A DNA stretch of 64,000 bases. Origin: Mobula hypostoma (taxonomy: Eukaryota). The position numbers and the translations under genes are program-made. This document shows positions 13,829 to 55,429 of this stretch, in pieces. The notes beneath the pieces are model-generated. The model did not search any database, was not told the origin of the DNA, and was given only the letters and a program-made list of their open reading frames with translations. Position 1 is the stretch's first letter. Each line of letters opens with the position of its first letter. The stretch spans positions 26,476,001 through 26,540,000 of the forward strand of contig NC_086097.1 of NCBI RefSeq assembly GCF_963921235.1. The letters are read 5' to 3'.

Positions 13829-16800
13829 AATTATTTAAATTCAAACATAGATATACAGCACAATTAGATCTATTTTTTAAACCTTTTTTTTGGAAAGATA
13901 TTAACAAAGAATCAGTAAAGGACAGATTATTAGTTGGCTACAAATAAGAGAGAATCTGCAGATGCTGGAAATCCAAGCAATACACTCAGCAGGCCAGGCA
14001 GCACCTATGGAAAAAAGTACAGTCGACGCTTCGGGCTGAGACCCTTTGGCAGGCTAGTCATTTAGAATAGAAGTGCCTGGCTGAGGTATGACATTGTCAG
14101 TTGGAGATTCATATTACTTTATTTACCATAAGTACATCAAAACACACAGAGAAATAGGCGTTTGCGTTAACAACCACCACAATGCAAGATTGTGCTGGGG
14201 GCAGCCCGCAACTGGTGCCACGCATTGTGGCGCCAACAAAACCTACCCACAATGTTCAACAGAACAAACAAGCTCCACATTCCAGCACCAACATAGCACG
14301 CTCGCAATGTCTGGCAGAGTACACAAGCAACCAATATCAACTGAATAGCAACAAAACAACATCAAAACAAGCGCCTTACCTCCCACCCACCAATTCAATT
14401 CCCGTTCATTAAAATTATTAGTAAACCAGAATTGGCTTGATCAAAATGTTAATAACTGGAAGCACTCTTCACAAGTCCTAAACTATCAGAGACAACAGTT
14501 CTGTAACATACAATTCAAGTTGTATAAAACTTAGCAAATTAAAAGCCATGAAATTAAAATGTTCTTTACAATATAGAAATAAAACTTGCTAAGGTAGCAA
14601 AGGTGAGAAATTGTTTCTCAAATAGAAATGATCAGTATTAGTATGTTTATTTTTCTTGACACATATTAATGGCCTGGACCTGAGATCCAGAATACATATG
14701 AAAATATTTGAATGGGACCAAGGAAAAGTAAGTTCAGTTGCATTGATATAAAAGAAACATTACTGTTCAGGAGCGGTGAAGGGTCTTGGCTCAAAATGTT
14801 GACAATAGTCTTTTCCATAGACGCTGCCTGGCCTGCTAAGTTCCTCCAGCATTTTGTGTATGTTGCTTGTTATTCAGGAGCAGCAGGTATGCGTAAATAG
14901 GGTTTTGATAGATGTATTAAAAATAATTGAGGACTTTAAAAGGGTAAAACCACAGAGAAAAATTCCAATAGCAATTTTGAGGGTAATTGGCAAAAAAAAA
15001 ACAGGAACAACATGATGACTTTTTTTTAAATAGAGACTCAAATCCACCTAAAACACCTCGGCTGAATGTTGGGAAACAAAACCAGAAGTCATGTTCAGAA
15101 CAGAATTCAAGATTGTTTAAAGTAATTTTCAGTACACAAGGGTAAAGGAGAACAAATAGTTGTTACTCTGGATCTGATGCAACACAAAAAAAAACACAGT
15201 AAGATAAAAAACATAACAAAAATTAAAAACACAGTAAATATAAATACACCATGCTGTAATTGTTATGTGGTTATATTGCAGGTCGGTGGGACTAGCTGAG
15301 AGAAAGCATTCGGCACGGACTAGAAGGGTCGAGATGACCTGTTTCCGTGCTGTAATTGTCATATGGTTATAAGATAGTGAATATATATAGATTGATTGTA
15401 TGTCCATAAAGTGACACTCGGCACATGTGTGTCTGTACATAAGGTGACTCTGATAGGAAATGATAAAATAGTGGTGGAGGGGTGGGTTAGTAGTTGGAGG
15501 TGTTGATCAGCCTTACTGCTTGGGGAAAGTACAGTTTTTGAGTCTGGTGGTCCTAGCTTGGATGCTACATAGCCTCCTCCCTGATGGGAGTGGGACAAAC
15601 AATCCATGAACAGAGCGAGTGGGATCCTGCTTGGTGTACTGCCCCTTTTCCAGAACATTTCTGTACACACGTCATTGATGTTGGTGATGTGTTGGACAGT
15701 TTTGACTACCTATTGTAGAGCTTTCAGGTCCTCCACAGTGCAGTTTCCATACCATGCAGTGATGTAACACGTTAAGGTGCTCTCTGCTGTGCATCTTAGA
15801 AGGACGTGAGTATAGATGTGGATAGTCCAAGCTCTCTCCAACCTCTTCGGAAAGTAGAGATGTTGGTGAGTTTTCCTGGTTGTGTAAGATATTTTCTGGG
15901 ACCATGAGAGGTTGTGCGAGATGTGCACTCCCAGCAGTTTGAAAATGAGCTACCAGCGGAGGTGATGGATGTGTGTTTGATTTCAACGTTTCAGAGAAAT
16001 TTAGATAGGTGCATGGATGGGAGAGGTATGGAGGGCTATGGTCTGGGTGCAGCTCAGTCGGACCACAGGCAGATTAATAGTTCAGCATAGACTAGATAGG
16101 CTGAAAGGCTTCTTTCTGTGACATAGTGTTCCATGACCCTATAAAGTCATATCTAACTTTAGCTTCTCTCTCTACACAACAAACGCTGAATTGCCAGCAG
16201 TTTAAACCTGTTCACAAATTCACACATAATGTAGAGGACTGAAAAAGGATGAATGAAAAGGCAGCGTTTTTGACTGGGGACCATTCACAGAGTGGCACAA
16301 TTCAAACTCCAATAATTGGTAACTGCACAGCAAGAGGTGGGAAAACTCATGCAAGTGTTGATCTTCTCAGCGATGACAAGTGATAATACAAAACTAATAG
16401 CATTTTTCACACACAGCCACCTCATCAGTTACATTTGTACTGAGCCAAGAAGACTCAAATATAGATCAGTGTTATTACATTGGTACTTTTCTCAAGAAAA
16501 CAAAATGACATTTACAAGCTCAAAGCAGACAGAGGGAGCCGGAATGAAGCCAAGCCCATTTGTTTCTATGAGTGCAAAACCACCACTGGATTTTAAAAAC
16601 ATTCAAATATTTGAGTACTTGGCCATTCTGATGAGTTCATTCAACAAATTATTATAATTGCTGTTACATTCACAAATTGCCACAAATTCTGCAGATGCAC
16701 ACACAAAATGCTGGAGGAACACAGTAAGTCAAGCAGTATCTATGGAAGGGAACGACCAGTTGACGTTTCAGGCCAAGACTATTCATCAGGACAATGAAGG

Positions 16801-17279: not shown

Positions 17280-20200
17280 CACAGAACAGTACAGCACAGT
17301 ATAGGCCTTTAGTCAGAATGCTGTGCTGACCTATTAACCGATTCCAAGATCCATCCAACCTTTTCCTCCACAGGTCTCCATTTTTCTTTCATCCATGTGC
17401 CCATCCAAGAGTCTCTTAAATGTCCCGATGTACCTGCCTCCACCACCGCAGGAAGTGTGTTCCATTCATCTCTCACTCCCTGTATAAAAAGACCTAGCTC
17501 TGACATCCCCCCTATACTGTGCTCCGATCACCTTAAAATTAAGCATCCTCATGTCAGCCATTTCCACCTGGGACAAATTCTCTGGCTGTCCACTCAATCT
17601 ATGCCTATTATCATCTTGTATACCATCAAATCACCAATGAGACCATTTAGACATAGGCCACTTGTACCATCGAGTCTGCTCCGCCATTCCATCATGGCTA
17701 ATTTATTATCTCTCTCAACTCCATTCCCCAGCCATCTTGACATAACTTCTGACACCCTGACTAATTAAGAAGCTATCAACCTCTGCTTTAAATAGACCCA
17801 CTGACTTGGCCTCCACACCCATCAGTGGCAATGAATTCCACAGATTCACCACCCTCTGGAAAAAGAAAATCCTCCTCACCTCTGTTCTAAATGGACATCC
17901 CCCTAGACCATGGGTTCCCAACCTTTTTATGCCATAGACCCCTACCATTAACTGAGGGGGTCCGTGGAACCTCTTCACTAGACTGCCATCTGTTCCAAGA
18001 CTCACCCAGTAGAGGAAAAACTGTCCCTACATCCATTCTATCCAGACCTTTCAATATTTGATAGGTTTCAATGGGATAGCATCCCCCCCCCCCCCAAATT
18101 CTGCCAAACTCCGGAAATTACAGACTCAAAGCCAGCAAACGGGGCTCATACATTAATCTTTTCATTCTCAGAATTATTTTCGTGAACCTCCTCTGAACTC
18201 TCTCCAATGCCAGCACAACCTGCACGTTAACCTTTAGGGAATCCTGCATAAAGACTCCCAAGTCCTTTTGCACCTCTGATTTCTGAATTTTCTCCCCATT
18301 TACAAAATAGTCTACATCTTTAATCCTACCAAAGTGCACGACCATACACTTCTCCACACTACATTCCATCTGCCACTTCTTTCCCCATTCTCCCAACCCA
18401 AGTCCTTCTGCAGACTCCCTGCTTCCTCAACATTACTTGTTCCTCCACCTACCTTCATATCGTCTGCAAACTTGGCCACAAAGCCATCAATTCCACCATC
18501 CAAATCGTCCACATATAACGTTAAAAGCAACGGGCCCTACACCAACCCCTGCGGAACACCACTACTCACCAGCAGTGAACCAGAAAAGGCCCCATTTATT
18601 CACACTCTTTGCCCCCTGCCAGTCAGCCAGTCTTCTATCCATGCTAGTATTTTTCCTGTCATCCCAAGGGCTGGTCATACCATAGGAGATAGGAGAATTA
18701 GAATGTTCGGCCCTTCATTATGCCTGATCCATTTCCCTCTGAGCCCCATTCTCCTGCCTTCTTCCCACAACCCATCACACCCTGACTAACCAAGAACCTA
18801 TCAACATCTGCCCTAAATATACCCAAAGACATGGCCTCCACAGCCACTTGTAGCAACTAATCTCACAGATTCACCACTCTCTGGCTAAAAAAATTCCTCA
18901 TCTCTGTTCTAAATGGAAGTCCCTCCATTCTGAGGCAGTGCCCTCTGGTCCTAGACTTCCCCAATATAGGAAACATCCTTTCCACATCCACTCCATCTAG
19001 GCTTTTCAACATTTAAGAGGTTTCAATGAGATCTTCCCTCAGTTTTCTCAATTCCTGCAAGTACAGGCCCAGAGTCATTAAGCGCTCTTTATACAATAAT
19101 CTTTCATTCATGGAATCATCTTTGTGAACCTCCTCTGAAAGCTCTCCAATATCACCACATCCTTTCTTAGATAAATGGCCCAAAACTGCTCACAATACTC
19201 CAAGTGAGGCCTCACCAGTGCTTTATAAAGCCTCAACTTTATATCCTTGCTCTTACATTCTAGTCCTCTCAAAACCAATGCTAACATTACATTTGCCTTC
19301 CTTACCACTGACTCAGCCTGCAAATTAACCTTTAGGGAATCCTGCATGAAGACTCCCAAATCTATTTGTACCTCAGATTTTTGAATTTCTGCCCATTTCT
19401 AATATAGTTTTCGCTTTTGCCCTTCTGCATGTTAGCATGACGATACACTTCCCGACACTATATTTCACCTGACACTTCTTTGCCCATTCTCCTAATCTGT
19501 CTATGTCCTTCTGCAGCCTCCCTGCTTCCTCAACACTACCTGCCCCTTCACCTATCTTCGTATCATCCATTATCTCCACCTATCTTCGTATCATCCACTC
19601 TCTCTACCTATCTTCGTATCATCCACTCTCTCCACCTACCTTTGTATCATCCACTCTCTCCACTTATCTTTGTATCATCCACTCTCTCCACCTATCTTTG
19701 TATCATCCACTCTCTCCATCTATCTTTGTATCATCCACTCTCTCCACCTATCTCTGTATCATCCACTCTCTCCACCTATCTCTGTATCATCCACTCTCTC
19801 CACTTATCTTCGTATCATCCACTCTCTCCACCTATCTCTGTATCATCCACTCTCTCCACTTATCTTCGTATCATCCACTCTCTCCACCTATCTCTGTATC
19901 ATCCACTCTCTCCACTCATCTTCGTATCATCCACTCTCTCCACCTATCTTTGTATCGTCCACAAACTTGGTCACAAAGCCATCAACCCCGTCATCCAAAT
20001 CACTGACACCACTAGTCACTGGCAGCCAACCAGAAAAGGCTCCATTTATTCCCACTCTTTGCCTCCTGCTAATCAGCCAATTCTGTATCCATGCTAGTAA
20101 CTCTCCTGTAATATCACGAGCTCTTATCTTGTTAAGCAGCCTTATGTGCAGCAGCTTGTCAAAGGCCTTCTGAAAATCCAAGTGTACAACATACGTCAAT

Positions 20201-23049: not shown

Positions 23050-24663
23050 CAGTGGCATGCAGAAGTTTGGGCACCCCTGGTCAAAATTTCTGTTACTGTG
23101 AATAGTTCAGTGAGTAGAAGATCAAATGATCTACAAAAGTCATAAAGTTAAAGATGAAACATTCTTTCCAACAGTTTTAAGCAAGATTAGTGTATTATTT
23201 TTTGTTTTGTACAATTTTAGAGTGAAGAAAAGGAAGGGAGCACCATGCAAAAGTCTGGGCACCCCAGGAGATTTGAGCTCTCAGATAAGCTCTCAGACCT
23301 TAATTAGTTTGTTAGGGCTATGGCTTGTTCACAATCATCATTAGGAAAGGCCAGGTAATGCTAATTTCAAAGCTTTATAAATACCCTGACTCCTCGAACC
23401 TTGTCCCAACAATCAGCAGCCATGGGCTCCTCTAAGCAGCTGCCTAGCACTCTCAAAATGAAAATAAATGATGCTCACAAAGCAGGAGAAGGCTATAAGA
23501 AGATAGCAAAGCGTTTTCAGGTAGCCGTTTCCTCAGTTCGTAATGTAATTAAGAAATGGCAGTTAACAGGAACAGTGGAAGTCAAGTTGAGGTCTGGAAG
23601 ACCAAGAAAACTTCCCGAGAGAACTGCTCATAGGATTGCTAGAAAGGCAAATCAAAATCCCCGTTTGACTGCAAAAGACCTTCAGGAAGGTTTAGCAGAC
23701 TCTGGAGTGGTGGTACACTGTTCTACTGTGCAGCAACACCTGCACAACTATGACCTTCATAGAAGAGTCATCAGAAGAAGACATTTCCTGCATCCTCACC
23801 ACAAAATTCAGCATCAGAAGTTTGCAAAGAAACATCTAAACAAGCCTGATGCATTTTGGAAACAAGTCCTGTGGACGGATGAAGTTAAAATAGAACTTTT
23901 TGGCCGCAATGAGCAAAGGTATGTTTGAAGAAAAAACGGTGCAGAATTTCATGAAAAGAACACCTCTCCAACTGTTAAGCATGGGGGTGGATCGATCATG
24001 CTTTGGGCTTGTGTTGCAGCCAGTGGCACGGGGAACATTTCACTGGTAAAGGGAAGAATGAATTCGATTAAATACCAGAAAATTCTGGAAGCAAACATCA
24101 CACGGCCTGTAAAAAAGCTGAAGATGAAAAGAGGATGGCTTCTACAACAGGATAATTATCCTAAGCACACCTCAAAATCCACAATGGACTACCTCAAGAA
24201 GCGCAAGCTGAAGGTTTTGCCATGGCCCTCACAGTCCCCCGACCTAAACATCATCGAAAACCTGTGTAGAGACCTCAAAAGAGCAGTGCATGCAAGATGG
24301 CCCAAAAATCTCACAGAACTAGGAGCTTTTTGCAAGGAAGAATGGGTGAAAATCCCCCAAACAAGAATTGAAAGACTCTTAGCTGGTTACAGAAAGCGTT
24401 TACAAGCTGTGATACTTGCCATAGGGGGTGTTACTAAGTACTAACCATGCAGGGTGCCCAAACTTTTGCTTCGGGCCCTTTTCCTTTTCTGTTACTTTGA
24501 GACTGTAAAAGATGGAAATAAAAAAGTAATCTTGCTTAAAATATTAAAGAAATGTGTCATCTTTAGCTTTATGCCTTTTGGAAATCAGTTCATCTTTTAC
24601 TCGCTTAGCTATTCACAGTAACAAAAATTTTGACCAGGGTGCCCAAACTTCTGCATCCCACTG
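23050..24663 (+). mobile_element. Full-length Tc1 transposon (IR/DR type)
   Basis: TIRs CAGTGGCATGCAGAAGTTTGGGCACCC...GGGTGCCCAAACTTCTGCATCCCACTG|TA, with inner direct repeats near 23250 and 24451. Confidence 0.95.
23422..24444 (+). pseudogene. Tc1 DD34E transposase, 340 codons, single in-frame stop at 23926-23928
   Basis: ORFs 23401-23928 and 23998-24444 share a frame. Paired-like HTH, GRPR AT-hook, WTDE, QQDN-x-IIE (34 residues between D and E) and WPSQSPDLN are present. Confidence 0.92.
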
Positions 24664-30840: not shown

Positions 30841-32258
30841 AACTTTGCCTCCAACTTTCACCCTGCCCTCAAGTTTACCTGGTCCATTTCCGACACCTCC
30901 CTCCCCTTTCTAGATCTTTCTGTCTGTTTCTGGAGACAGCTTATCCACTGATGTCTATTGTAAGCCTACTGACTCTCACAGCTATCTGGACTATTCCTCT
31001 TCTCACCGTCTCTCTTGCAAAAACGCCATCCCCTTCTCACAATTCCTCCGTCTCCACCGCATCTGCTCTCAGGATGAGGCTTTTCATTCCAGGACGAGGG
31101 AGATGTCCTCCTTTTTTAAAGAAAGGGGCTTCCTTTCCTCCACCATCAACTCTGCTCTCAAACGCATCTCCCCCATTTCACGCACATCTGCTCTCACTCC
31201 ATCCTCCCGCCACCCCACTAGGAACAAGGTTCCCCTGGTACTCACCTACCACCCCACCAGCCTCTGGGTCCAACATATTATTCTCCATAACTTCCGCCAT
31301 CTCCAACGGGATCCCGCCAGTAAACACATCTTTCCCTTCCCCCCGCTCTCTGCTTTCCGCAGGGATCGCTCCCTACGCGACTCCTTTGTCCACTCGTTCC
31401 CCCCCATCCCTCCCCACTGACCTCCCTCCTGGCACTTATCCTTGTAAGTGGAACAAGTGCTACACATGCCCTTACACTTCCTCCCTCACCACCATTCAGG
31501 GCCCCAGACAGTCCTTCCAGGTGAGGCGACACTTCATCTGTGAGTTGGCTGGGGTGATATACTGCGTCCGGTGCTCCCGATGTCGCCTTCTATATATATT
31601 GGCGAGACCCAATGCAGACTGGGAGACCGCTTTGCTGAACACCTACGCTCTGTCCGCCAGAGAAAGCAGGATCTCCCAGTGGCCACGCATTTTAATTCCA
31701 CATCCCATTCCCATTCTGACATGTCTATCCACGGCCTCCTCTACTGTAAAGATGAAGCCGCACTCAGATTGGAGGAACAACACCTTATATTCCGTCTGGG
31801 TAGCCTCCAACCTGATGGCATGAACATTGACTTCTCTAACTTCCGCTAATGCCCCACCTCCCCCTTGTACCCCATCCGTTATTTATTTTTATACACACAT
31901 TCTTTCTCTCACTCTCCTTTTTCTCCCTCTGTCCCTCTGACTCTAGCCCTTGCCTATCCTCTGGGTTCCCCCCGCCTTGTCTTTCCCCCTGGGCCTCCGG
32001 TCCCATGATCCTCTCATATCCCTTTTGCCAATCAACTGTCCAGCTCTTGGCTCCATCCCTCCCCCTCCTGTCTTCTCCTGTCATTTTGGATCTCCCCCTC
32101 CCCCTCTCAAATCTCTTACTAACTCTTCCTTCAGTTAGTCTCGGCCTGAAACGTCGACTGTACCTCTTCCTAGAGATGCTGCCTGGCCTGCTGCGTTCAC
32201 CAGCAACTTTGATGTGTGTTGCTTGAATTTCCAGCATCTGCAGAATTCCTGTTGTTTG
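30841..32258 (+). mobile_element. Penelope-like retroelement, 5'-truncated (RT C-terminus + GIY-YIG endonuclease + 3' terminal repeat)
   Basis: Frameshifted remnants: VYCKPTDSHSYL-type RT motif, VPLVLTYHP, C-x4-C-x2-C, YIGET..RL..RF.EH and LEEQHLIFRLGSLQPDGMNIDF*. Confidence 0.92.
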
Positions 32259-32592
32259 ATTATTCTGCTAGGTCTTGATGATTCACCACCCCAACAAACC
32301 ATATCATGCAATGTTTTGAAAACATTTATTGCCTGCCATTTAGCAAAACACTTCAAATTAACTGGAAGGATAAACAAACCAATGGTAGCATCACTGCCAG
32401 ACCAACATACAATGTCAAAAAAATCAAAGAGCTGGAGGTCCATGAGCCAGTCCTCATTAGATGATCAGAGGTGGAGAAGGTCAGTAGCTTTAAATTTCCT
32501 GGTATTATCATATTAGATGATCAATCCTGGGACCAGCACACAAGTGTCATCACAAACAAAGCATGAGAGTGTCTCTACTTTCTTAGAAGCTT

Positions 32593-37372: not shown

Positions 37373-38894
37373 TCCACGAGATGGAAGTATTTAATGTTCT
37401 GCAATTTTGTTTTTGAATTTAATTTTATGTTTCTGAAAAATAACTATATTTTCTAGTATAAAAACTTAAGAAAACACTAATATTTAAAGGCGGAAAGTGG
37501 ATACTATACAAAAAGTTTTAAAATCATAGTTGCAGACTACTCAATTTGCTTCAGTGACTGGAATTCACTGGGAGGTAAGCGGATTTGTGCACTGATACTT
37601 TGTTCATTTAACTAAGCTATTTGCTTATCAGGTATTTGCTTAAGGGGTCCATTGTAATTGCAAAGGGCAACATTAAAGCCATGTGGCGTTGCATGCACAG
37701 TTGCTTTAAAGTTAATTAGGCTGCTGCAGAATAGCCCTGCCATGTCAGTGGGAGAGATTTTTTTTAAAACAGCAACTGGGCCAAAAGCCAATAGAGGAGA
37801 ATCTCTTCAACAAAATAGCTCTCTGATCATTAAGAGCTATAAATGGGGTTTAAAAGGTATAATCCCAACCTCTCAACATTTTACACACACACTCAACGTT
37901 TTACGAAGTTTCTTCCCCCTCCACCAGCAGATTTCTGAAACAGACAATGAATCCATCAACACTACCTCACTACTTTTGCTCTTTCTTTGCACTACCTATT
38001 TAATTAATGTTTGATATATTTATAATTTATAATATATTTTATGTTTTACACTGCTGCTGCAAAACAACAATTTTCTTGACATGTGTCAACGATATTAAAT
38101 CTGCTCCTGATTCTGAGGTGACTTCACTCACCTCAACCTATGGACTAATTTTCAAAGACACTATAACTCATACTCTCAGTATTTATTATGAACTTATGTT
38201 TTTATTCTTTTTATTTATGTAGTTTGTCCTTTGCGTGTTGGTTGCTTGTTAGTCTTGTGTATAGTTGTCATTGATTCTATTGTATTTCTTTGTTCTACTG
38301 TGAATGCCTGCAAAGAAATTAATCTCAGGGTAGTATATGGTGACAAACACGTATTTTGATAACAAATTTACTTTGAACTCTTAAGTTTCGTTTAACTTGG
38401 TTCTTTTTGTCCTCGAAACATCTTGATTAGAAATATGTAACGAACACAAAATGGTGGAGGAACTTGGAAGGTCAGGCAGTTGCTATGGAGAGGAATGAAG
38501 TCAATGTTTCGAGTCGAGTCTCTTTATCTGGACTGGAAAGGGAGGGGGAAGAGCCAGAATAAGGTGGTGTGGGACGGGAAAGGAGGACAAGCTGGTGGGT
38601 GATAGGTGAGAGGGAAGGCAAGTGGGTGGGGGAAATGGGGGCAAGTCTGGGCGAGCATGTGGTTGAAGAGTCGGAAAGAAGCAGAGATCACAGAGGGGGA
38701 GCAGTGAGAGCAGGTTTTTATGAATTCCCATCAAAGAGATGATTTAAACTTCAGGGTAGGCATACCTCAGAGACTTCGCTGTGGAGCAGCAAATCATAAA
38801 CACAAGAGATTCTGCAGATGCTGGAAATCCAGAGCAACACACACAAAATGCTGGAGGGACAGCAGATCAGGCAACATCTATGGAGAGGAATAAG

Positions 38895-38930
38895 AGTTGA
38901 TATTTCAGGCTGAGAGCCTTCATCAGAACT
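38895..38930 (-). ncRNA. Minimal type-I hammerhead ribozyme motif within a Penelope-derived short element (about 38798-38990)
   Basis: Minus strand: AGTT-CTGATGA-AGGCT(CTC)AGCCT-GAAA-TA-TC^AACT. 4-bp stem I, intact core, 5-bp stem II, palindromic ATAT stem III, AUC cleavage triplet. Confidence 0.72.
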
Positions 38931-40850
38931 GGAGAGGAAGGGGGGAAGAAGCCAGAATAAGAAGGTGGAGATAGAGGGAGGAGTACAAGCCGAAGGGAGC
39001 TAGGTTGTTGCGGGCAATGCCCATACAGTTCTGGAAATATCAACACACCATTAACAGCAGATGTTTTTCTGATGAGGAATGAGCTTAAACACTACCCTCA
39101 CCTCTCCATGTTCCTTCCCTCCCTTCTGACTTTCCAAACAAAAATCAAACTATTAAAACTGGGATGTTCTTCACAAAAGCTGCACTGACATGAAACGCTG
39201 ACTGTCCATGTCTCTCCTCTGATGTCGTCTGACCCACTGTGTTCCTAAGAGCTTTGTTTACAATTTCCTGTTAGAGCATCAATCCAATATATCAGAATGA
39301 ATCTGGTACAAGGATCACCAGGTTTTTAGCTGATGTACATCCCTTTGTTACTATTGTAGCATTCTTGTTGCATTTTGTGCTGCACAATAATGTGCAGTAT
39401 TCTCGTTTAATTGGGAATATAATTTTAAAAGATTTCATTAGCAGCAGGTCACAAGGACAGAACAGATGGCTGAAATATTTCATTAACCTCCAGTGTCCTG
39501 AGGAGTAAAAGAGCTTCTTCCTTCTGCCTGCCTTTGATCATAGTCAAAGTCAAAGTAAAGTTAGTATACCATCTTGAGATTCACTTTCTTGCAGGTCTTT
39601 ACAGAAAAATAAAATACAATAGAATTTACAAAACTATACATAAACAATGACTGACAAACAATTGTGCAGATTTTTTAAAAATACTGAGAACAAGAGTTGT
39701 AAAGAGTCTTTGAAAGTGAGTACTGGGGTAATAACTGTTCCTGAGCCTGGTGGTGTGGTACCTCCTATCTGATGGCAGTAGCAGGAAGAGAACATGGTGG
39801 GGGCCCTTGATGACGGAAGGTGATTTCTTGTGGCAGCGCTCCTTGTAAATGTGCTCACTGGTGGGGAGTGCTTTGCCTGTGACAGACCGGGCTGTATCCA
39901 CCACTTCCTGCAGATTTTTCCATTCCTGGCTATCGGCGTTTCCAAACCAGGCTATGATGCAACCACTCAACTCAACTCCCATTATTGCTGATTTCATTAT
40001 GTTCTGAAGAAGTGCCAATATACTGTAACAGTTTATGTTGGAAAGTGAAGTTGGGAGGCTCCTTTACACAGAGACACAATGGGTTCAATGAACTCCTGTG
40101 CCTTAATTCTATTCTGTTGTTCTATCCCATCGGTGCTCCAGAGGCATTTATTAAAATTGGATCCAAAGGGACTAAACTGTATAGTGCTAATTCAAGCAGT
40201 TGAATAAATGTGAGAAGAGTGTTTCAACACTGCCAAACAGTCAAGTGACTGGGTAGTAAACAGGAATAATCATGATGCCATAAAGGCAGTATTTTCCTTA
40301 TACTGTCTTCACGGAAAGATTATACCAAAATCCTATTCTTTCATTCATAAAAAATTTACAAAAATTATCTTCCATATAGAAGTTACAGTATGGTTATTCT
40401 TTTAAATATAAAGATTAGCTTTCTTTGCCGCATGTACACTGAAACACAGTAAAATGTGTATTTTGCATCAATGGCCAACACAGTGTGCCGGGGCAGCCTG
40501 CAAGTGTCACCATGCTTCTGGGGCCAACATAGCATGCCCAAAAAGTACTTAGTAATGCTAACCAGTACGTCTTTGGAATGTGAGAGGAAACCAGAGCACG
40601 CCGTCACGGGAAGAATGTATAAACTACCTACAAACAGAACTGAACTGAACCCCGATCTTCAGATCAATCGCTGGTAGTGTAAAGTGTTACACTAACCACT
40701 ACACAACTGTGCCACACCTTAGCTTCTGATTAATATTTATTGATCATACATGCATTTTGGACTGCATTAAAGTTTACTGCAATGTTTCAATACTATGCTT
40801 AATCCACACTGAAGTCAAAGCAAACCAAATCTTTCCTCTAATTCTTAAAT

Positions 40851-46336: not shown

Positions 46337-46513
46337 TATGTCTTCTGATCTTACGGTCTTTTTAGATATTTACAATGTCTTTACCTCAAACAATTTCTGA
46401 AAACCAGATGGACAAATGCAGAAATCTTGCACGTTTATTTGCTTTTGTGATGAGAAAAGTTAGCACTGTATGTAAATAGATAAAAGGAGCAAATATTAAA
46501 AGCAGAAGCTTAC

Positions 46514-47065
46514 CTGACTCCTGTCCTTGTCTACTTTCTTGAAGCATTTATTCAAAGACAAATTGTGTCTAACAGAGTTTTTCCACCCAGTTGGAGCATT
46601 TACAAAATATGGGAAATGTTCTAGGATCCAGTTGTATATATCCTTAACAGGCAGGCGTTTGCTGGGCGAGTCCTCAATAGCCATAAATATCAGGCAGCTG
46701 AAGGAATAAGGTGGTTTGCAATTAGGGTTCTGCTTGGCGTCGTAGGGCTGGTCAGAATGAGCAGGGGATGGAGGGGTATCCTCATCAATGTCCTGAACAG
46801 GACTGACACTACGCAGTCCTGTGTCACCAAAACTTTTGAGGAGGTTCTTGCTCTCATGTAGCCAGTTCAGGTTTGTTAGCTCTTCATCCTCCATGGCCAC
46901 CTTCTCCAAACAGATGGTGGGCAAGCAACTGCTTGCTAAGTCCAACTCTTCAACCTCCTGCAGCGCCTTGGTCAGTGAACTCCCTGGGTAACACTGGCTC
47001 AGTCCACTCGAAACACTAATTCCTGAGCCTTCTGGCTTCTTGCTGGGAGGCATGACTGGACCCAT
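46514..47065 (-). CDS. FOXN3: Forkhead box N3 (CHES1), first coding exon (184 codons, N-terminus and most of the forkhead domain)
   Basis: Translation [26 protein letters not shown]...[19 protein letters not shown]...[68 protein letters not shown] matches vertebrate FOXN3 as I recall it (FOXN2 begins MGPVIGMTP). Phase-0 donor CAG|GTAAGC at 46514/46513. Confidence 0.97.
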
Positions 47066-49680: not shown

Positions 49681-50609
49681 CAAAACACAAATCTTTCACC
49701 ACTGGGGAGGACAGGGCGATGTCATTGGCTGTACATCCACTTCCAAATGCGCATCATTCTCACAGAGTTATATCACCATTTGACTTTAAACCCTTAAAAC
49801 TCTTCACCAAGCAGCATAGTGAACTTCTTCATCAGGTCCACAGTATTCCAAAAGATTTCAACAATGCCTAGTTTCCAAAGCTATAAGTAAAAAAAAAGTG
49901 CAGACTATAACATGGCTTGGCAACAGCTCTGCCCATGACTGCAAGAAATCAGAGAGTTGTGGACACAGATCAGCATATTTCAGACCAGCCTTCCCTCTGC
50001 AGACTCTCTTTATACTTCTCACTGCCTCAGTAAAGCAGCCAGCAGAATCAAAGACCCCACCCACCCCGGACATTCTCTCAGGCAGAAGATACAAAACCCT
50101 GAAAGAATGTATCACTAAGCACAAACACAGCTTATACCTCACTGTTATTGGACTACTGAATGGTTTTTTTGTATGATTAGACTCTGACTTCAAAGTCCAT
50201 CATGTCAGGGCCCTTCCACCTTGTCTGCCTACACTGCACTTTCTCTGTAACTGTAACACTATATTCTGTGTTCTGTGCAACACACCCAAAATTCTGGAGG
50301 AACTTAGCATGTCTGGCAGCATCCATGGAGAGGAATAGGCAATCAACATTTTGTGTCGAGACGCTTCATCAGGACTGGAAAGGAAGGGGGCAGAAGTCAG
50401 AATAAGAAGGTGGGGGCGGGGAAGGAGTATAAACCGGCAGGTGATGGTGAGACCCCTTCCTTTCCAGTCCTATGAAGGGTTTCAGCCCAAAGTGTCGACT
50501 GTTTAATCCCCTCCAAAGAAAGCACCAAAGCTGTTTCCACAAGATGACTGTAAGGACAAGGTCAGTAACCCCTCCCAAGCCAACTTGAGGAACAAAATGA
50601 ATGCTGTAG

Positions 50610-55326: not shown

Positions 55327-55429
55327 CAAACTGTTCCAGCTGCTACCATCCGGAAAACGGTACCACAGCATCGCAGGCAATGTGGTGCTGTGGTACCGTT
55401 TCCAGGATGGTAGCAGCTGGAACAGTTTG
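55327..55429. repeat. Near-perfect 46-bp inverted repeat (hairpin)
   Basis: 55327-55372 versus 55384-55429: 3 mismatches, 11-nt spacer. Confidence 0.93.

Follow-up and report, generated by a model that had tools for sequence, protein, structure and literature searches.

The hammerhead motif at 38895-38930 of the 64,000-nt window (the whole stretch of DNA analysed here) is, in all likelihood, a neutrally decaying piece from the end of a Penelope-like retroelement, one that would be inert and have no role in the expression of FOXN3, the gene whose intron holds it. Judged by its letters, the motif is genuine and of an already known hammerhead kind, a degenerate descendant of the family motif. 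Cleavage at a relevant rate would be most unlikely, because the monomer has no stem III, no tandem partner is present, and the pair at positions 10.1-11.1 is A-U. The first-pass annotation had proposed that this copy was kept working and might cut the FOXN3 intron. This proposal finds no support: the decay is of the CpG type, conservation is like that of the flanks, the same changes are as common or commoner in dead copies, and tens of thousands of better-preserved copies exist.

Architecture of the motif

The letters read earlier from the minus strand (38930-38895) agree with the sequence, and the elements of the motif, its host fragment and its immediate surroundings are as follows.

38927..38930, minus strand: stem I 5' arm (2.4-2.1); 38927 is a C-to-T transition relative to the family motif
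38920..38926, minus strand: core C3-A9, intact in the sequence
38907..38919, minus strand: stem II of 5 bp, register shifted and closed by A-U at 10.1-11.1, loop CUC; 38916 is a transversion, and 38911 and 38907 are changed CpG sites
38903..38906, minus strand: core G12 A13 A14 A15.1, intact in the sequence
38900..38903, minus strand: palindromic stem III half AUAU (ACGU in the family, both CpG bases changed), which would pair only in a dimer
38898..38899, minus strand: predicted cut after C17, from hammerhead numbering on the sequence
38895..38898, minus strand: stem I 3' arm (1.1-1.4), with a G-to-A change of a CpG at 38898
38788..39005, minus strand: solo 5'-truncated 3' end (pseudo-LTR region, about 220 nt) of an older Penelope-like subfamily, with no ORF (self-comparison, nhmmer and alignments)
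38436..38611, minus strand: nearest family copy, core broken at U4 and G8 (target fold with the flagged copy, +1.4 kcal/mol)
46514..47065, minus strand: first coding exon of FOXN3, donor GT at 46513-46512

All conserved hammerhead nucleotides had been reported as present, which holds for the core (C3 U4 G5 A6 N7 G8 A9, G12 A13 A14 A15.1, U16.1 and C17) but not for the G10.1-C11.1 pair, replaced here by A-U. Stems I (4 bp) and II (5 bp with a CUC loop) do pair, stem III is indeed only the self-complementary palindrome AUAU at 15.1-16.1, and the predicted cut at 38899/38898, after C17, agrees with the hammerhead numbering. The AUAU is unable to close a helix on itself, which leaves the monomer without stem III. 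The description of stem II as missing the extra A of the family is incorrect, since the segment from A9 to G12 is 13 nt long in the family and in the flagged copy alike, with no deletion. What differs is the register, shifted by the changes at 38907 and 38916, such that the bulged A now pairs with a U and G10.1-C11.1 is lost.

The G10.1-C11.1 pair matters for hammerhead activity. It is highly conserved in minimal hammerheads (PMC4209133), and ribozymes whose helix II consists of this pair alone are still active (PMC544870). Compensatory changes at 10.1-11.1 have been described in cricket hammerheads (PMC2837043), and by analogy with these natural variants an A-U pair need not be fatal; a literature search for an activity measurement of A-U at this position found none. 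Regarding folding, the four pairs of stem I are all Watson-Crick, with a pairing probability of at most 0.03 when 50-200 nt of native flank are included, and in the predicted monomer fold the core is base-paired to the region of the cut. A similar fold is predicted for a young motif of the family (L020) with C at position 7, where positions 5-8 can pair with 15.2-17 as an inactive monomer fold.

An old member of an abundant family

The identification of the motif as a Penelope-type minimal type-I hammerhead that requires a dimer is borne out by the architecture, which matches that described in PMC4209133, and by young relatives elsewhere in the genome that carry a GIY-YIG ORF ending about 300 nt upstream of the motif. 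The GIY-YIG domain scored above the Pfam cut-off in one of the five ORF pieces scanned (L020, 23.6 versus 22.6 bits) and weakly in two more, and the RVT_1 match in these pieces is weak (E 0.076).

About 15 copies had been counted in the window, the flagged one being the only one with core and stems intact. The count rises to 22 family matches (E<1e-3, flagged copy included), and the uniqueness stands. Among the 18 window copies in which the motif could be aligned, the core is intact in two, the flagged copy and 16766-16789, the latter with broken stems, and the catalytic G12 is lost in seven. At the level of the genome (3.48 Gb), the strict intact family motif has 7,988 exact matches, and a pattern requiring the core together with pairing in every stem has 57,247, approximately one per 61 kb. 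None of these 57,247 lies in the window, and it is because the window happens to contain no intact match that the decayed flagged copy stood out.

Intact family copies carry G10.1-C11.1 and leave one nucleotide unpaired between 9 and 10.1, two features absent from the flagged copy. A T at 11.1 is found in 83/100 intact copies among the matches listed (57,247 in all). By this tally of sequences, the conserved G10.1-C11.1 appears as G-U in the most abundant young subfamily, and such a pair in the most amplified lineage may reflect a relaxed demand on cleavage. The possibility that the flagged variant represents a distinct subfamily was rejected: it has one exact match and 34 matches within two mismatches, and the 14 examined are 66-86% alike to the flagged copy, as predicted for independent decay.

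Other arrangements of the family were also observed in the window. The segments 2357-2568 and 50276-50535 hold family ends as back-to-back inverted pairs, and opposite-strand pairs of such elements have been described (PMC4209133). A longer, frameshifted Penelope-like fragment at 30843-32270 shows a weak GIY-YIG match and a hammerhead with an internal deletion.

Comparison with known hammerhead systems

Minimal type-I hammerheads located in the pseudo-LTRs of metazoan Penelope-like elements were described by Cervera and De la Pena 2014 (PMC4209133), in whose account a single minimal motif gave no cleavage, and dimers and trimers gave little. The flagged copy resembles these motifs in its core, its 4-bp stem I, the lack of a real helix III and the palindromic 15.2-16.2, while the family to which it belongs shares with them the extra nucleotide after A9, the site after the GIY-YIG ORF and the predominance of solo truncated copies. 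Unlike the Schistosoma motifs of the same source, with 7-8 bp in stem II, the present family has a stem II of 4 bp, and the flagged copy departs from the published minimal motifs in having lost G10.1-C11.1 and the bulged A by the register shift. One supplement file of that article yielded no shark, skate or Callorhinchus entries, and a search of the literature for Penelope or hammerhead together with shark, skate or ray gave no 'Penelope' paper among the matches listed.

The Poseidon element PAc from the anole is also a vertebrate Penelope-like element with a pseudo-LTR hammerhead, which cleaves only with the protein of the element (PMC11167929). Cleavage was dispensable for its insertion in vitro, and RNA-seq ends at the site were not seen. 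In contrast to the assayed PAc, the flagged copy is an ORF-less fragment known from sequence alone.

The domesticated intronic ribozymes of amniotes provide a second comparison. The hammerheads of RECK and CTCL/C10orf118 (PMC6155905, PMC10761166), which are thought to derive from retroelements, and the HDV-like ribozyme of CPEB3 (PMC10919898) are conserved across lineages and cleave. The flagged motif resembles them in lying on the sense strand of an intron in a vertebrate gene, and differs from what these sources describe in that it belongs to a set of tens of thousands of copies, shows no hint of constraint and lacks a fold as a monomer.

Lastly, non-LTR retrozymes are arranged as short tandem repeats that supply the dimer partner (PMC7229834; bioRxiv 10.64898/2026.07.22.740005), and they have been reported in one chondrichthyan (bioRxiv 10.64898/2026.07.22.740005). 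They have in common with the flagged copy a type-I hammerhead, the lack of an ORF and a kinship with Penelope pseudo-LTRs (PMC7229834). Unlike them, the flagged locus has no tandem array; none was found there, and the neighbouring copy has a broken core.

Neutral decay or selection

Compared with the intact copy L032, the flagged copy has seven changes, at 38927, 38916, 38911, 38907, 38902, 38901 and 38898, and five of them fall at CpG sites. The T at 38907 was possibly inherited, as the dominant young subfamily has T fixed at this position (the 83/100 among the matches listed). The ancestral state at 38907 is read as CpG because both directions of decay occur in older copies (545 and 441 matches). 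Divergence outside CpG sites amounts to 2/28 in the motif (versus L032) and to 6/109 in the flanks (versus the majority of 22 sister copies, which were selected by likeness to the flagged copy, and this may lower the flank figure). Conservation of the flagged motif does not exceed that of its flanks. The flank divergence is the lowest among 23 aligned copies, and this is simply a little-diverged copy.

The first-pass annotation had also stressed that the copy differs from the family in ways that keep pairing. G12 lies inside a CpG, whose decay either keeps or kills it, and dead-core copies thus served as controls, in tallies that are hand counts of the matches listed per pattern, from the first contigs only. 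The register-shifting G-to-C change was found in 7/100 copies with G12 alive (flagged copy included) versus 13/100 with G12 dead, among the matches listed (545 and 441 in all; Fisher p 0.24). An A at 1.1 is present in 11/76 copies with T at 2.1 versus 23/100 core-dead copies with C at 2.1, in which it makes a mismatch, again among the matches listed (1,314 and 998 in all; p 0.18). The same changes in stems I and III occur together in 18 copies genome-wide, six of which keep G12, while 12 of the 17 others lack it. The combination of a shifted stem II and an intact core is common to 19 copies. Pairing-keeping changes are no commoner in core-intact than in core-dead copies, and selection for compensatory changes was rejected, given that these three genome-wide dead-core controls show no enrichment.

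Neutral decay was also simulated, in a simple scheme without indels. The probability that at least one copy in 20 would pass was 0.19-0.81 over the rates tried when G-U pairs were allowed, and 0.04-0.50 with only Watson-Crick pairs in stems I and III (0.04-0.09, an uncommon outcome, in the strictest setting).

Regarding the age of the insertion, contigs from four of the 24 listed runs were examined. The contig 38941-39192 of organism E (23/252 letters different) and the contig 38646-38823 of organism D (12/179) both bridge unique flank and element, indicating that the insertion is older than those splits. Over the motif itself, contigs of paralogous copies predominate in organisms B, D and E, and none of the listed contigs of certain orthology extends across it. 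In run X5, whose material is guessed to be RNA, the contig 38942-39417 ends where a contig of X18 ends too (38941), with 43 nt still separating it from the predicted cut, although contigs cannot show RNA ends.

According to these data, the history of the motif would begin with a family carrying a minimal hammerhead about 300 nt after a GIY-YIG ORF, amplified to tens of thousands of copies, from which one old solo copy now sits in the FOXN3 intron. After insertion, its CpG sites would have decayed by methylation and deamination. In the CpG holding G12, the C would have changed and the G stayed, which would have allowed the core to survive, and the double decay of ACGT would have produced another palindrome. 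Two further point changes would by chance have left stems I and II pairable, and the copy would be transcribed only as an intron passenger.

Location within FOXN3

The placement of the motif on the FOXN3 sense strand, about 7.6 kb past the donor, is correct: the exon spans 46514-47065 on the minus strand with its donor GT at 46513, and in PDB it is the FOXN3 forkhead domain that it matches best (154 bits; runner-up, 93). The following coding exon lies at G000:C1:26434974-26435114, which gives an intron of about 87.4 kb with the hammerhead inside it in sense orientation. The literature retrieved for FOXN3 together with ribozymes consisted of unrelated papers only.

Sense-strand copies are not depleted near FOXN3. 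In 88.8 kb (the window plus L046-L049), all five core-intact motifs lie on the FOXN3 sense strand, and the family matches divide into 18 sense and 17 antisense; the motif-bearing copies of the window are 13 sense and five antisense. A further sense copy with an intact core, L003 (G000:C1:26451815-26451850, minus strand), is in the same intron, 63 kb downstream; its stem I is changed as well and its stem III half is non-palindromic.

Dimer requirement and alternative readings

As the monomer lacks stem III, a cut at 38899/38898 requires the core of a partner. The double-hammerhead fold was modelled after the legend of Fig. 1 and the text of PMC4209133, with stems I and III formed between two copies. 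In this model, the flagged core would cut the partner, and the flagged site would be cut by the core of the partner. A partner must offer U at 2.1 and U at 15.2, facing A1.1 and A16.2 of the flagged copy. Folding energies rank the copies poorly, because every active dimer is predicted to lie above the monomers. The young homodimer is no exception: intact young copies likewise seldom form stem I in context, and their active dimer, too, lies about 9 kcal/mol higher than the separate molecules. The published cleavage tests are more informative.

It is unlikely, though it fares best among the alternatives to inert decay, that the copy undergoes low-level passenger cleavage without a selected role, in which an occasional double hammerhead with family RNA, formed in trans or helped by protein, would cut a small share of the transcripts. 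The flagged core is intact, partner RNAs are potentially abundant, protein-assisted cleavage has been reported in a related element (PMC11167929), and the flagged homodimer is predicted to be capable of complete pairing (target, -7.4 kcal/mol, 6.4 higher than the monomers). Nevertheless, the common family motif is unfit as a partner, with a mismatch in stem III and the loss of a pair in the second stem I (predicted target, -2.5 kcal/mol), and the partner pattern fits just 188 copies in 3.48 Gb (187 others). Moreover, the fragment has no ORF, the region in which the protein-binding part of the anole element was placed (PMC11167929).

Partners within the same intron were rejected: the neighbour about 400 nt away (+1.4 kcal/mol) and L003 (0.0) both have a mismatch in stem III. 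When the sense strand was scanned for targets that the flagged core might cut, four sites of at least 10 bp emerged. At the best of them, 14334, three of the stem I pairs would be G-U, and by a rough estimate this site is near chance.

The idea that the copy might act by pairing with another one stood in part. A complementary partner, L046 (G000:C1:26564040-26564075, minus strand), does exist 49 kb upstream on the FOXN3 sense strand, and the predicted fold is 9 kcal/mol unfavourable. L046 belongs to a younger subfamily and has an intact core. No CpG-island promoter was found between the FOXN3 exon and L046, and for this reason L046 may lie within the FOXN3 transcript.

It is very improbable that the two copies form a selected cis-regulator cutting the FOXN3 pre-mRNA on both sides of the first coding exon; equally slim are the prospects that two Penelope relics, unrelated and of different age, became complementary through decay and now act across 49 kb as a split double hammerhead. 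Besides the possible shared transcript, such a reading would draw on L046 supplying U at both 2.1 and 15.2, by which all 12 intermolecular pairs can form, two of them as G-U, and on a chance of only about 0.3% of finding such a partner within 50 kb on the same strand. However, the pair was found post hoc, after many features had been viewed, and about 0.13 such close same-strand pairs are expected among the matches listed (first 100). In the model, the target fold reaches -4.7 kcal/mol and the monomers -13.7, without counting the penalty for a 49-kb loop, and the gap widens to 25.6 with native flanks. L046 is of a younger subfamily, its two changes are common transitions, and such changes are not enriched genome-wide. 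Were the split double hammerhead real, each core would cut the site of the other and free a 49-kb piece with the start-codon exon, whose ends could be circularised by tRNA ligase. A transcription-factor gene would then be subject to a long-range ribozyme switch that repeat decay had built.

That the motif is a chance hammerhead-like match with no relation to any ribozyme family can practically be dismissed. The Rfam search that had been suggested as a check does return no hammerhead family up to E 10, for the whole window or for 38820-39000, and the folding energy of the 36-mer is ordinary (z -0.68), but a descriptor requiring at least 4 bp in each of stems I and II matches the flagged copy as the sole site in the window, against 0.01 matches per shuffle in 300 dinucleotide shuffles. 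The idea is refuted by the thousands of intact copies to which the motif is clearly homologous and which have the published minimal architecture.

Other features of the window

A near-perfect inverted repeat at 55327-55429 gives an Rfam mir-2131 score of 54 bits, under the gathering score of 92, and is probably a repeat-derived palindrome. A Tc1/Sleeping Beauty-like transposase of almost full length, interrupted by one stop, occupies 23365-24444, and a tandem array with a 28-bp unit (14.8 copies, 91% matches) lies at 19549-19962.

Significance

Under the favoured reading of a neutrally decaying fragment, the flagged copy itself matters little, being one relic among tens of thousands. It does carry a caution: in a ribozyme motif rich in palindromes, the decay of CpG sites produces changes resembling compensation, and a dead-core control is needed before such changes are read as selection. 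The more general question is whether introns are cleaved in a genome with approximately one intact minimal hammerhead per 61 kb. If the pair 49 kb apart were found to cut, it would represent a novel mode of gene regulation by repeats.
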